Sequence record: OL631479.1
Origin: Escherichia phage ECML-10
Reading direction: 5' to 3' (one strand)
Length of the DNA stretch: 64,000 nt
The notes beneath the pieces were generated by a model. It was not told where the DNA came from. It worked only from the letters and a program-made list of their open reading frames with translations, and did not search any database. The position numbers and the translations under genes were made by a program. The first letter of the stretch is position 1; every line of letters starts with the position of its first letter. This document shows positions 46,472 to 64,000 of this stretch, piece by piece.

Positions 46472-47290
46472 TTGAGCAAGAAAGAGTCCAACGACAAATA
46501 TTACACAAACCCTGAGTATGCAGAATATCTTGTTGGTAAAGTAAAAGATAAGTATGGAAATTGTGCATACGTTGAGCCTTCTGCTGGAAGGGGTTCTTTT
46601 TCAAAACTATTTTCAGAGATACTGTCTTACGATCTAGTACCAGATCCTGAATTTGAAGGACCAACACCGTGCATTCAGGCAAACTTCTTGGAGGTGCATC
46701 CCAAGGCAGATGTCTTCATAGGTAACCCACCATTTGGCAAGAATTCATCTTTAGCTTGCAAATTCTTTAACCATTGTGCATCATTGCTAGAGCTTGGAGG
46801 GGCTATAGCCTTCATCTTGCCACGGACATTTGAAAAAATATTTTTTGCAAACAAACTGGACATGTCGATGCACCTTGTCTACAGTGAAAGGTGCCCTAAG
46901 AACTCGTTTCTACTTAATGGCAAACCTTATGACGTGCCGTGTGTTTTCCAAATTTGGGAGAAAAAGGCGTGCAACAGGGATCCTGTAGAGATTGGGGAGA
47001 ATAAGTTATTTTCTTTTAGCACTCCAGATGACTACGACTTCTGTGTAAGACGTGTTGGGTATAATGCTGGAAAAGTATTGGGGGAGGATGACCCAAAATC
47101 TGAAGAATCAACATATTTCATAAAATCTTTAGTTGACGGTGTTGACAGAGTGTTTGCTGAATGCTATTCTTCTTTTCAAGAAGAAGCAGGTAAGACTGCC
47201 GGAATGAAGAGTATAGGTAAGAAAGAACTACAATACATTTTGGAGACTAGGTATGATCAAAAGCATAGACTTGACCAAAGAACTTACTGA
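46472..47290 (+). CDS. N6-adenine DNA methyltransferase
   Basis: Motif I-like VEPSAGRGSF and motif IV NPPFG; start TTG 46472 after GGAGG (no early in-frame ATG). Confidence 0.6.
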   Translation: MSKKESNDKYYTNPEYAEYLVGKVKDKYGNCAYVEPSAGRGSFSKLFSEILSYDLVPDPEFEGPTPCIQANFLEVHPKADVFIGNPPFGKNSSLACKFFNHCASLLELGGAIAFILPRTFEKIFFANKLDMSMHLVYSERCPKNSFLLNGKPYDVPCVFQIWEKKACNRDPVEIGENKLFSFSTPDDYDFCVRRVGYNAGKVLGEDDPKSEESTYFIKSLVDGVDRVFAECYSSFQEEAGKTAGMKSIGKKELQYILETRYDQKHRLDQRTY

Positions 47291-47711
47291 TGCAAAAGCT
47301 TTTGGTGAGACAGCGGTACAAAGGGGGCAGGCGATGGGACTGGCACTACCTTTCGTATTAAAAGAGCACTTTACAGATTTTCAACTTATCAAGGGTGATA
47401 AGGGAATGCTTATCCTGGAGCATAAGTTGAGTAAGAAACGCTATAAAGTTGTTTTTAATTCTAAAGCTCCAACAAAACTGGGATTCAGAACTTACAATCT
47501 TAACCCATCCTACACTAAGGGTGTTGGAAGGGTAGAACAACAGCATTTCAGTGCCAGAGCTTCTTTAGCCCCTTTGATGCTAAATTTCTCAGGGGTGGCT
47601 TTAGGATACCTTGATAAGAAAAGAGTTCTTCATGTCCGTTTCACAGACTTTGTAACGCTTCTAGCCAACAACGAGGTTGATGAAAAGGGACGTGTAAAAA
47701 CAAACTTCTAA
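47253..47711 (+). CDS. Hypothetical protein
   Basis: 152 aa ORF overlapping end of methyltransferase gene. Confidence 0.3.
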   Translation: MIKSIDLTKELTDAKAFGETAVQRGQAMGLALPFVLKEHFTDFQLIKGDKGMLILEHKLSKKRYKVVFNSKAPTKLGFRTYNLNPSYTKGVGRVEQQHFSARASLAPLMLNFSGVALGYLDKKRVLHVRFTDFVTLLANNEVDEKGRVKTNF

Positions 47712-60985: not shown

Positions 60986-61014
60986 TTGACAAATAGGCAA
61001 GCTTTAGATATTAT
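60986..61014 (+). promoter_or_regulatory. Sigma70-like promoter (TTGACA-N17-TATTAT)
   Basis: Follows hairpin 60947-60967; -10 context GATATTATTATCGG resembles promoter at 42251. Confidence 0.55.
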
Positions 61015-61041
61015 TATCGGACAAAACAAGGAGAAGGACAG

Positions 61042-61354
61042 TATGGCCACAATACAAGAGAAACTGAATAAAATATACTGCCTGTTTGTCTATAACGGCG
61101 AGACAATTTTGGCATATAAAGGATCCAAGAATGTATGGATCAAGGACAGTGGTGGTAATATAATCAATTTAGCGTTGCTACGTGAGCGCCGACACAGATT
61201 CTTTATCGAGTCTAGAATTATTGAAAGTAGTACCTGCTACAGAACAGGCGATAAAGTAATTGTTGACAATGATACGTGGTATGTGGTAGACTGGCAATCA
61301 TTGAGCTGTGATGCTTCTGACAATCGTAAGTACTCTATAGTGATTGCTAAATAA
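61042..61354 (+). CDS. Hypothetical protein
   Basis: Start ATG 61042 with RBS AAGGAGAAGG downstream of promoter. Confidence 0.3.
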
Positions 61355-61414
61355 AGGTAAATGTGAATCAGGTTTAAATAAATAGCTTTCAACTTCCAAT
61401 ATTAAGGATTTCTC

Positions 61415-62464
61415 ATGAATTTAACACCTCGCAGCACCATGGTACACGGCATGAAAGAAAAACAGAACGGTTTCGAACCTATGAGTAATAAAATGTTCGG
61501 TATGCCGGGTGGTATTATGGAAACATACAGCTACCCAACACCAGTTGTTGACCACGTTCTTTATATCGACGATTTGGAAGACTTACAAGATCATATGTCT
61601 CGTCTGCAGACGATCCGTATGGCTCAGCCGGAAGAAAGCATTCGGGTGATCATCAATAGCCCTGGGGGTTGCGTGCACATTGCAATGGCTTATCTGCAGG
61701 CATTCCGCGAGTCTCAGGCAAGCGTTGTTGCACATGCTGAAGGGATGTGTTGCTCTGCTGGAACAATCTTATGGCTTGGTTGCAAAGAACGTACTGTGGC
61801 TCCGGACACAGAATTTATGTTCCACTACTATCAAGGTGGCACTTATGGTAACGGTGTGAACATGAATACTCAGGTCAGCTACTGGAAAAAACGTTTTGAA
61901 CGCCTGATCGAAAAATACTACGGTGAGGTGCTGACAGAAGATGAGATCGCATCCATCACAGCTGGTGGCGAAGTGTGGTTGGACGGAGAAGAGCTGGCAG
62001 CACGCACTGGAGCTATTATTCTGGATGAAGGCAACATACAACGCATCCAGAACGGACAAAAACCGAAAAAGCTTCTGGCAAAAGGTGATGAGGAAGGCGT
62101 GTTAGGTGAAGCAGGTCTTCCGGAGATTCACCAGTGCACATCTTTAGATGAGTTAGTTCATGCTGTTGAATCTGCAAAAGAGGGTGGTTCGAAAGGTGAT
62201 GTTCACACTGTGTTCCTGAATCTGCAGATGGAAAGTGGCGAGACCGTCCGAATTGCCCTGGGTGAGATTACTTCAGAAGATCTGCAGAGATTCTCTGTCG
62301 TTGAACTTCAGGATATTCTGTCTCAATTGAAGACCACTCTGAACGGCGGTGAAGAGGTTAAGGTGAAAGATAAGACTCGCAAGCGTCTTGTGGACAATAT
62401 TATTAAAACAGCAAAAGAGCTCAATGAAAAAATCCTGGGTGCAGGAATTGTCGAAGAAGCTTAA
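61415..62464 (+). CDS. ClpP-like serine protease (S14 family) with C-terminal extension
   Basis: VIINSPGGCVHIAMA and HAEGMCCSAGT (catalytic Ser context); ~150 aa Glu-rich C-terminal extension. Confidence 0.7.
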   Translation: MNLTPRSTMVHGMKEKQNGFEPMSNKMFGMPGGIMETYSYPTPVVDHVLYIDDLEDLQDHMSRLQTIRMAQPEESIRVIINSPGGCVHIAMAYLQAFRESQASVVAHAEGMCCSAGTILWLGCKERTVAPDTEFMFHYYQGGTYGNGVNMNTQVSYWKKRFERLIEKYYGEVLTEDEIASITAGGEVWLDGEELAARTGAIILDEGNIQRIQNGQKPKKLLAKGDEEGVLGEAGLPEIHQCTSLDELVHAVESAKEGGSKGDVHTVFLNLQMESGETVRIALGEITSEDLQRFSVVELQDILSQLKTTLNGGEEVKVKDKTRKRLVDNIIKTAKELNEKILGAGIVEEA

Positions 62465-62476
62465 ACATTAATTCTA

Positions 62477-62500
62477 AAGCCCTCTTCGGAGGGCTTTTAT
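62477..62500 (+). terminator. Rho-independent terminator after ClpP-like gene
   Basis: Hairpin AAGCCCUC-UUCG-GAGGGCUU followed by UUAU. Confidence 0.55.
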
Positions 62501-62515
62501 GATCTGGAGATTTGC

Positions 62516-63049
62516 ATGACTTGTGCTAGAAAACCTGATGAACAACGTAACGCATACGATGAGTATGTGACACCGGAGTGGTGTGCAGAAGGGCTGTATG
62601 ACCTCATTCCGTTCCCAGAAGATTGGACCTATTTGGAGCCTTGCAGAAATAGCGCCTCAGGCGTGTTCTACTCCCGTATGCCGTTAGGATCTGCATGGGG
62701 AGAAATCCAAGAAGGTGTTGACTATCTGAATACAGAATACAACCATGTTGACTGTATTATCACCAACCCACCGTACAGCTTGGCTCGTGAGTTTGTAGAC
62801 AAGGCGTTGAAAGATGCTGACGTAGTTATTATGCTTTTGCGTCTTAATTTTCTGGAAAGCAAAGCCAGATTTGAATGGTGGCTTGATAATGCACCTACCA
62901 CTGTGATCACAATATCTAAGCGTCCATCATTCCAATCGAATGGCAGAACTGACGGGCAAGCATATGCATATTTTGTATGGGACAAGAAAAACCGTCTAGA
63001 CTTGCCGCCATTTATGTGGTTGGCACCACCAGAGGCAGATTTGAAATGA
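62516..63049 (+). CDS. Small N6-adenine methyltransferase-like protein
   Basis: 177 aa; DCIITNPPY (motif IV) and EPCRNSASGVF (motif I-like). Confidence 0.4.
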   Translation: MTCARKPDEQRNAYDEYVTPEWCAEGLYDLIPFPEDWTYLEPCRNSASGVFYSRMPLGSAWGEIQEGVDYLNTEYNHVDCIITNPPYSLAREFVDKALKDADVVIMLLRLNFLESKARFEWWLDNAPTTVITISKRPSFQSNGRTDGQAYAYFVWDKKNRLDLPPFMWLAPPEADLK

Positions 63050-63330
63050 AAATGAGTGCTAAGGACAAGTTGCACCAGTTAGCGCTAAAACGTCCTGTAA
63101 CGCTCCCTGACGAGCTTAACTCCATTTATGATGCGATTGTAGGGGAGATACAAAATAAAGCGTTAGCAGGCTTTCTGGGATGCGGATTTTCGATAAATCT
63201 ACCCTCACATCTCTCAGATTACTTCCCGCATATTGTTGGGGATTTGAGGGCAGGAGGTCTGCAGGTAGATGTTGTTGGCATCTCTCCAGAGAAAAATAAC
63301 ACGGTTGCCTACTTGACAGTAACCTGGTAG
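63046..63330 (+). CDS. Hypothetical protein
   Basis: ATG overlaps upstream stop (ATGA). Confidence 0.25.
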   Translation: MKMSAKDKLHQLALKRPVTLPDELNSIYDAIVGEIQNKALAGFLGCGFSINLPSHLSDYFPHIVGDLRAGGLQVDVVGISPEKNNTVAYLTVTW

Positions 63331-63364
63331 TTGTGTATTGTTGTTATCAACAAGGGGGTCATTT

Positions 63365-63604
63365 ATGTACAAGTCATTTTCAATTTACTCAAGACAGGCG
63401 AAACACTACACAGAGATCCTGATTACTCAGAAAAAATCTGTAGAGGGTGAGTGGGAGTATCACCATAAAATGTTGCGTCCAGCTTGGGTTTTTGATAGAC
63501 TTATTGCTATGATCCCTCTTGGAGAAGTATACCCTCTGACAGGTCATAGGGATGCTTGGGATTTAATTGATTACATAGATTCATTTAAGGAGCCCAGTGT
63601 ATGA
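63365..63604 (+). CDS. Hypothetical protein
   Basis: ATG 63365 with RBS AAGGGGG. Confidence 0.25.
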   Translation: MYKSFSIYSRQAKHYTEILITQKKSVEGEWEYHHKMLRPAWVFDRLIAMIPLGEVYPLTGHRDAWDLIDYIDSFKEPSV

Positions 63605-63999
63605 AGATTGAGATCACTAAAGAAGGTAAGAAAGTGTCTGGAGACTATGCAACAGTAATTCGAGATTTAATGTTTGAAACCACCAAGTTCGGCACATCTA
63701 AAGTTGGTCAAACGGTGAGTGTGCAAGGTAATATCACCTCAGGAGAGAAGATAATCATCGTGATCAAAGGACAAGATCCTGTGGAAGGAACAGTGGGCCG
63801 AGGAGGCTACCTGTGCATTTCTGAAGAACCGCGCATGCTGGTTGCTGATGACTCCACAGGTAAAAAGCGGGTATGTAACACTGACGAGGTGATGATTATC
63901 TATCCAGTCAACCCAGATGATCCTGCAACATGGATTGTGGGGAATGAAATCTTCTCTTTAGAAGAGTTATCCTTCCCAGCTCCGCGCTCTGTTCAGTAA
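63601..63999 (+). CDS. Hypothetical protein
   Basis: 132 aa ORF, start overlaps upstream stop. Confidence 0.25.
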   Translation: MKIEITKEGKKVSGDYATVIRDLMFETTKFGTSKVGQTVSVQGNITSGEKIIIVIKGQDPVEGTVGRGGYLCISEEPRMLVADDSTGKKRVCNTDEVMIIYPVNPDDPATWIVGNEIFSLEELSFPAPRSVQ

Positions 64000-64000
64000 T

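Follow-up and report, generated by a model that had tools for sequence, protein, structure and literature searches.

A 177-residue catalytic-domain protein of a Vequintavirus coliphage, probably an orphan N6-adenine DNA methyltransferase

Introduction

The window analyzed in this study, a stretch of 64,000 nucleotides from Escherichia phage ECML-10 (OL631479.1), belongs to the genome of a Vequintavirus (rV5-like) coliphage, with positions 61000-64000 exhibiting 98% identity to phage JES2013 and 97% identity to rV5. It raises a puzzle in that it contains two putative adenine methyltransferase genes, yet phages of this group stay highly sensitive to restriction. The smaller of these genes encodes a protein of 177 residues, and the question is what such a short protein would modify and how a catalytic domain of 160-190 residues that has no recognition domain would choose its target.

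The assignment of this protein as a methyltransferase is already public and hence no discovery, as it dates from deposit of the rV5 genome. The gene is the same as rV5 gp118/ORF123 (YP_002003620), with length, location after a ClpP-like gene and an overlapping downstream open reading frame (ORF) all alike. RefSeq names rV5 gp118 “DNA methyltransferase”, the BASEL phages carry it as “putative N6 adenine methyltransferase”, and Vequintavirus orthologues with 97-100% identity are annotated as DNA methyltransferase in more than 100 phage records. Those of JES2013, FFH2, ECP32 and MaxBurger are identical to the protein in the window. The public name of gp118 is one given on similarity alone. Our survey of the literature found no methylation or restriction data and no methylome for rV5-like phages or Vequintavirus beyond the BASEL restriction phenotypes, nor any biochemical data on a member of the family; methylation is not discussed in the rV5 genome paper, and nothing relevant was found in literature on K139. 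A ClaI result with the related phage CB7 was considered as evidence of phage methylation but was set aside since it is confounded by host Dam.

Results and Discussion

The methyltransferase gene and its flanking signals

The ORF at this locus had been noted from the sequence alone as a minimal adenine-methyltransferase-like gene on the basis of two segments, DCIITNPPY (residues 79-87) and EPCRNSASG (residues 41-49; nt 62636-62662), both of which are present and can be read directly (Table 1). PROSITE pattern PS00092, which we take in the form [LIVMAC]-[LIVFYWA]-{DYP}-[DN]-P-P-[FYW] to be the N6-methyltransferase signature, was run on the six-frame translation of the window (127,996 residues) and gave one match only, which falls within this ORF. 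Residues 1-172 additionally match PHROG 799, “DNA methyltransferase”, over the full length of the family with an E-value of 5.1e-67. Comparison of the window, rV5 and MaxBurger revealed 18-22 synonymous versus 0-2 non-synonymous codon differences, which indicates that the gene is under purifying selection and is kept by selection. Given the PHROG match, the single PS00092 match and this selection, the ORF and its motifs are beyond chance.

Upstream of the gene is a GC-rich hairpin (centroid -14.7 kcal/mol, z -2.5 versus shuffles by RNA folding) that probably serves as an intrinsic terminator, though a leaky one, or else stabilizes RNA. It was overlooked in a simple consensus terminator scan because its tail is too poor in T. 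No sigma-70-like promoter was seen between the hairpin and the start of the methyltransferase gene, so expression of the latter may depend on read-through. The ClpP-like protease gene that precedes the hairpin (61415-62464, + strand) encodes 349 residues (PHROG 5410), about 150 of which lie beyond the protease domain. On the other side, the 94-codon ORF that overlaps the methyltransferase stop codon is probably translationally coupled to it.

Table 1. Coordinates of features in the window that are discussed in the text.
Feature	Position	Strand	Basis and remarks
177-aa minimal methyltransferase CDS	62516..63049	+	ORF list, ATG start; rV5 gp118/ORF123 homologue, PHROG 799
Shine-Dalgarno-like GGAG	62506..62509	+	6 nt 5' of methyltransferase ATG, read from sequence
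GC-rich hairpin AAAGCCCUC-UUCG-GAGGGCUUU with U-rich tail	62476..62497	+	RNA fold; between clpP-like stop (62464) and methyltransferase start
Motif X, D15-E-Y17-V-T19-P20 (consensus D-x-Y-x-T-P)	62558..62575	+	Opposite M.TaqI ETP (residues 22-24)
Motif I, SAM-binding loop, L40-E-P-C-R-N-S-A-S-G49	62633..62662	+	Alignment of 41 relatives; opposite M.TaqI LEPACAHG
Motifs II and III, E63 and D69-Y70	62702..62725	+	Opposite M.TaqI E71 and D89-F90
Motif IV, catalytic loop, D79-C-I-I-T-N84-P-P-Y87	62750..62776	+	T83, N84, P85, P86 invariant in 41 relatives
Loop between strands 6 and 7, R136-P-S-F139...D146...Y150	62921..62965	+	R136, D146, Y150 invariant; P137, F139 at least 90% conserved
Downstream 94-aa ORF	63046..63330	+	rV5 gp119 homologue, PHROG 12158, function unknown; ATG overlaps methyltransferase stop (ATGA, 63046-63049)
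Other methyltransferase gene, 272 aa	46472..47290	+	Separate gene; PHROG 5172, PADLOC MTase_II E 1.3e-33

Motifs and fold of a gamma-class catalytic domain

Conservation was assessed with an alignment of 41 diverse relatives, in which T19, T83, N84, P85, P86, L107, R109, R118, R136, D146, Y150 and W155 are invariant and the consensus reads D-x-Y-x-T-P ... L-E-P-C-x-G-x-G ... E-I-x-E-G-x-D-Y-L ... I-I-T-N-P-P-Y-S-L-A ... L-L-R-L-N-F-L ... R-P-S-F. The motifs occur in the order of the gamma class, namely X (15-20), I (40-49), E63, D69-Y70 and NPPY (84-87). Within motif X, D15, Y17 and P20 are conserved in at least 90% of the sequences, as is D69. The NPP[Y/F/H] core is kept in 260 of a wider set of 262 relatives. 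A search of the PDB with the single 177-residue sequence returned noise only. The family profile gave an E-value of 1.2e-5 with M.TaqI, and the alignment brings motifs X, I, II, III and IV into register over M.TaqI residues 22-110. This was the best PDB value obtained, there being no close solved-structure match by sequence for either the family or the HP1 Dam type. The profile pairs T19-P20 with M.TaqI T23-P24 and NPPY with N105-Y108; established structures of M.TaqI identify the residues aligned here as those that bind SAM and adenine. The acidic residues of motifs II and III would be expected, from this alignment, to contact the ribose and adenine of SAM.

The structural model exhibits the seven-stranded alpha/beta fold of a class I Rossmann-like SAM-dependent methyltransferase, with the SAM-binding loop after strand 1, and 144 of its 177 residues superpose on the catalytic domain of M.TaqI. 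Together with the profile match to M.TaqI, this supplies the SAM-binding fold on which the original prediction had staked itself. The model consists of the catalytic domain alone. M.TaqI has 421 residues and a C-terminal recognition domain, whereas the phage chain ends 21 residues past the seventh core strand, where it adds just a single short strand (166-169), and nothing in it corresponds to a separate target-recognition domain of the M.TaqI type.

The SAM-binding loop had been called only motif I-like. It lies opposite M.TaqI LEPACAHG in the profile alignment and is a genuine motif I, though a peculiar one. The family consensus is LEPCxGxG, while in the Vequintavirus clade the first Gly is replaced by Ala and two residues, NS, are inserted. 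Most relatives have EPCxGxG and the rV5 group has EPCRASG; among the 262 relatives, EPCRASG was counted in 50 and EPCRNSA in 2. The additional NS is limited to the Vequintavirus clade among the relatives collected. Modelled confidence is lower in this block (pLDDT 83). One could ask whether the protein is catalytically weak or dead, a SAM-binding or structural remnant kept for some other role, or instead a glutamine or lysine protein methyltransferase like HemK/Mtq2. We regard this as highly improbable. M.TaqI also has Ala-x-Gly at this position, so the Ala is no sign of inactivity; equivalents of all M.TaqI contacts to SAM and adenine are present; NPPY is invariant and purifying selection is strong. 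As for a protein substrate, both DNA and RNA adenine enzymes rank above Mtq2 in sequence and in structure searches.

The loop between strands 6 and 7 (pLDDT 79-88) is a candidate for motif VIII, a putative substrate-contact loop, and is an insertion hot spot of the family. For example, one relative (P0097) has an insert with four Cys while two others (P0144 and P0200) have inserts of about 35 residues, and the family's target contacts may evolve in the loop that follows R-P-S-F. The P0097 insert, which comes after R-P-S-F at alignment columns of about 235-270, resembles a zinc ribbon, and those of P0144 and P0200, likewise after R-P-S-F, span residues of about 142-176.

Size and distribution of the family

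The original prediction had also described the protein as much shorter than typical methyltransferases. This holds against methyltransferases at large, but within its own family the size is the norm, as the median length of the 262 relatives is 187 residues, with 178 of the proteins at 160-199 residues. With this median, and with the NPP[Y/F/H] core so widely kept, the size of 177 residues does not reflect truncation. The family itself is large, comprising 22,084 representative clusters at E-values up to 0.001 and 1,715 at E-values up to 1e-30. A tblastn search located the gene in 579 records of phages that infect many hosts. No DNA match to the gene was present in 5,426 complete E. coli genomes, which indicates that E. 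coli prophages do not carry this clade. Matches to plasmids are mostly to large Aeromonas plasmids, plus a single “E. coli plasmid” of 137,565 bp (CP057073.1) that, given its Vequintavirus size and gene content, is probably a Vequintavirus genome with a wrong molecule label. Additionally, Campylobacter jejuni is given as the host in 34 phage records (for example MG065646, MG065650, MG065655, MG065662 and MG065689) whose sequences share 96-99% identity with Vequintavirus or Phapecoctavirus genomes from E. coli, and these host labels are probably wrong.

A solitary gene in replication-associated surroundings

The gene lies 3' of the ClpP-like protease gene, in a block with NrdD/NrdG and PhoH, both in the window and in every Vequintavirinae relative. 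The order of the ClpP-like and methyltransferase genes is also kept in Klebsiella, Proteus, Cronobacter and Pectobacterium relatives, as it is among the Vequintavirinae and in a metagenomic phage with 57% identity. In an unrelated phage the family gene is found between genes for peptide deformylase and primase, near DnaB and PolA; in K139-like Vibrio phages it is part of an early operon, directly 5' of rep; and in another unrelated context it occurs amid unannotated phage genes.

No endonuclease or specificity gene adjoins the methyltransferase in the window, rV5, MaxBurger or four unrelated contexts, and the gene is solitary in every context examined. We considered whether it could belong to a restriction-modification system and rejected this, as there is no endonuclease neighbour and the PADLOC match amounts to only 16.7 bits. 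The downstream 94-residue protein was likewise considered as a conserved partner or specificity subunit and rejected: the equivalently placed ORF of the 57%-identical relative has no similarity to it, and the neighbours in more distant relatives are unrelated as well. Lack of a restriction partner distinguishes the protein from M.TaqI and the other gamma-class N6-adenine DNA enzymes (Eco57I/MmeI, HsdM, BseCI, CamA).

DNA or RNA as the substrate

The closest characterized relative is the 173-residue Dam of phage HP1 (orf13), which was aligned by hhalign over 123 columns (95%, E 2.9e-8). PMC7556043 cites the Dam enzymes of HP1 and VT-2 as cloned phage Dam methyltransferases. HP1 Dam resembles the protein described here in being a minimal phage methyltransferase of about 170 residues that has no recognition domain and is encoded by an early or replication-region gene, as well as in the succession of an N-terminal D-x-(W/Y)-x-T-P, NPPY and an R-x-P-F segment. 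It differs in that identity is only 24% and LDTCA stands in place of the family's LEPCxGxG loop, and the GATC specificity of HP1 Dam cannot be transferred to the PHROG 799 family. An alignment with T1 Dam was confined to the surroundings of NPPY.

All Pfam matches of the 177-residue protein are to adenine DNA methyltransferases, and each is below threshold: EcoRI_methylase (PF13651; 20.1 bits versus a cut-off of 26.4), Dam (PF05869; 19.2 versus 28.1) and Eco57I (PF07669; 13.3 versus 25.3), with the EcoRI_methylase and Eco57I matches located around motif IV only. The phage N-6-adenine-methyltransferase model TIGR01712 likewise gave 16.1 bits against a cut-off of 97.05. Such sub-threshold DNA methyltransferase Pfams recur in 15, 10 and 8 of the 41 aligned members, while RrnaAD occurs in 1 of 41. 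It is the homology with HP1 Dam, these recurring Pfams and the replication context that point to DNA as the substrate.

An alternative is that the protein is an RNA N6-adenine methyltransferase of the Erm/KsgA/METTL5 kind that acts on host rRNA or tRNA or on phage transcripts. METTL5 and ErmC' as well as KsgA are of comparably small size and have a structural and profile similarity to the phage protein that is comparable to that of the DNA enzymes, with Erm, KsgA and METTL5 scores nearly equal to the score of M.TaqI. These enzymes do act on RNA, whereas the phage gene occurs in DNA replication modules. METTL5 requires TRMT112, and Erm and KsgA each have N-(I/L)-P-Y as their motif and a C-terminal domain that binds RNA. 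In the phage family, by contrast, N-P-P is invariant and there is no conserved TRMT112-like partner. Moreover, the closest characterized homologue, HP1 Dam, is a DNA enzyme, and it is DNA methyltransferase Pfams that recur below threshold. Weighing this evidence, we consider action on RNA quite unlikely. Beyond an RNA target, which is possible, nothing points to the non-canonical function that had been suggested for this gene.

Specificity and the sensitivity of these phages to restriction

A DNA adenine methyltransferase without a target-recognition domain could also be non-specific, providing broad cover against restriction in the manner of Hia5, Hin1523 or M.EcoGII. Several systems bear on this: EcoRI, EcoRV, EcoKI, EcoCFT_I, EcoCFT_II and EcoP1_I are all blocked by adenine methylation inside their sites. 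The BASEL Vequintavirinae, MaxBurger included, were “exceptionally susceptible” to these six restriction systems when tested (PMC8594841). As phages with the identical protein are so sensitive, non-specific methylation is unlikely. Phage and prophage enzymes of minimal specificity do exist (PMC3299994; PhiOS31_p25), and the absence of a recognition domain in the 177-residue protein would suit one. The Hia5 type, however, has 281 residues, DPPY, FxGxG and a divergent recognition region and so belongs to a different class (PMC3299994), and HP1 Dam, though equally small, is cited as a Dam (GATC) enzyme (PMC7556043). These observations, indirect as they are, make a non-specific enzyme very unlikely.

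Palindrome counts in the window provided no hint of a target for the methyltransferase, with GATC occurring as often as expected (345 sites, O/E 0.99). GTAC is strongly under-represented over positions 1-64000 (100 observed versus 197.5 expected, O/E 0.51, z -6.9), as is CTAG (O/E 0.58), and earlier pressure from restriction may account for the scarcity of GTAC.

The reading we favour, and consider probable from sequence comparison, is that the 177-residue protein, which comprises the catalytic domain only, acts as an orphan, sequence-specific and SAM-dependent N6-adenine DNA methyltransferase (EC 2.1.1.72). Some findings stand against it: there is no visible protection of these phages from the six restriction systems tested, and the protein misses every curated family threshold while its clade has an atypical SAM loop (Gly to Ala, with the NS insertion). 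In such an enzyme, judging solely by homology to M.TaqI, motif X (T19-P20), motif I (E41-P42...G49) and residues E63 and D69-Y70 would bind SAM, and N84-P-P-Y87 would form the pocket that receives the flipped-out target adenine. With no separate recognition domain, contact with DNA would have to come from the catalytic domain itself, for which R11, R109, R118 and R136, all of them invariant or nearly so, and the conserved loop 134-150 are candidates. The protein could also act as a homodimer, with one protomer assisting in the grip on the DNA. The gene would be transcribed together with replication and nucleotide-metabolism genes, and replicating phage DNA would then be methylated at a short specific motif distinct from those recognized by the restriction systems known to cut these phages. 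The pay-off, the weakest step of this proposal, may be evasion of particular restriction systems or marking of phage DNA.

Tandem fusions of the minimal module

Among the relatives, fusion partners are limited to tandem copies of the module or unannotated tails. Natural tandem duplications of the minimal module within one chain are present in two relatives, P0153 (560 residues) and P0204 (448 residues; L013:273-1619). In both, motif IV of the first copy is degenerate (TNPPH or IHPPS) while the second copy has an intact TNPPY. Both proteins begin with a segment that resembles a signal peptide (MRIKKFFSSVITALLGFSHSCIA...). The neighbour of the P0204 gene in L013 encodes a cation ATPase, so the gene probably resides on the chromosome of a low-GC bacterium. 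AlphaFold2 prediction of the P0204 fusion without an alignment gave a pLDDT of 34.9.

The tandem sequences hint that the module may function in pairs, with catalysis confined to one protomer. A stronger version, that the module is an obligate dimer in which one protomer catalyzes and the other holds the nucleic acid, much like METTL3-METTL14 or the Type III Mod dimer, or else that the real substrate is RNA and not DNA, strikes us as unlikely.

The second methyltransferase gene

The original prediction had counted two adenine-methyltransferase-like genes in this DNA, and this count is borne out, the two proteins being remote paralogues: the profile of the 41 relatives aligned with the 272-residue protein encoded at 46472-47290 over 148 columns (hhalign 94.7%). 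This second protein has the motifs YYTNP, VEPSAGRG and GNPPF, is covered over its full length by the PADLOC Type II methyltransferase model, and has a JES2013 homologue that is named “putative DNA N6-adenine methyltransferase” in RefSeq. It shares with the 177-residue protein the catalytic domain, including the S-F-x-x-N-G-K and W-(D/E)-K-K segments, with BLASTP identity of about 27% over 89 residues, but differs in having NPPF and about 100 extra C-terminal residues that could serve in target recognition. Its gene is directly 3' of that for a DNA polymerase exonuclease subunit and overlaps the next ORF (47253-47711, + strand) by 38 nt. In JES2013, genes annotated as HNH endonuclease, endonuclease and transposase-like are located 1.2-4.5 kb upstream of the counterpart gene.

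Significance

What this locus offers by way of discovery is slight, as the phage family is very common and its annotation already public. Should the substrate prove to be RNA, a large phage family that is labelled “DNA methyltransferase” would instead be a modifier of host or phage RNA.
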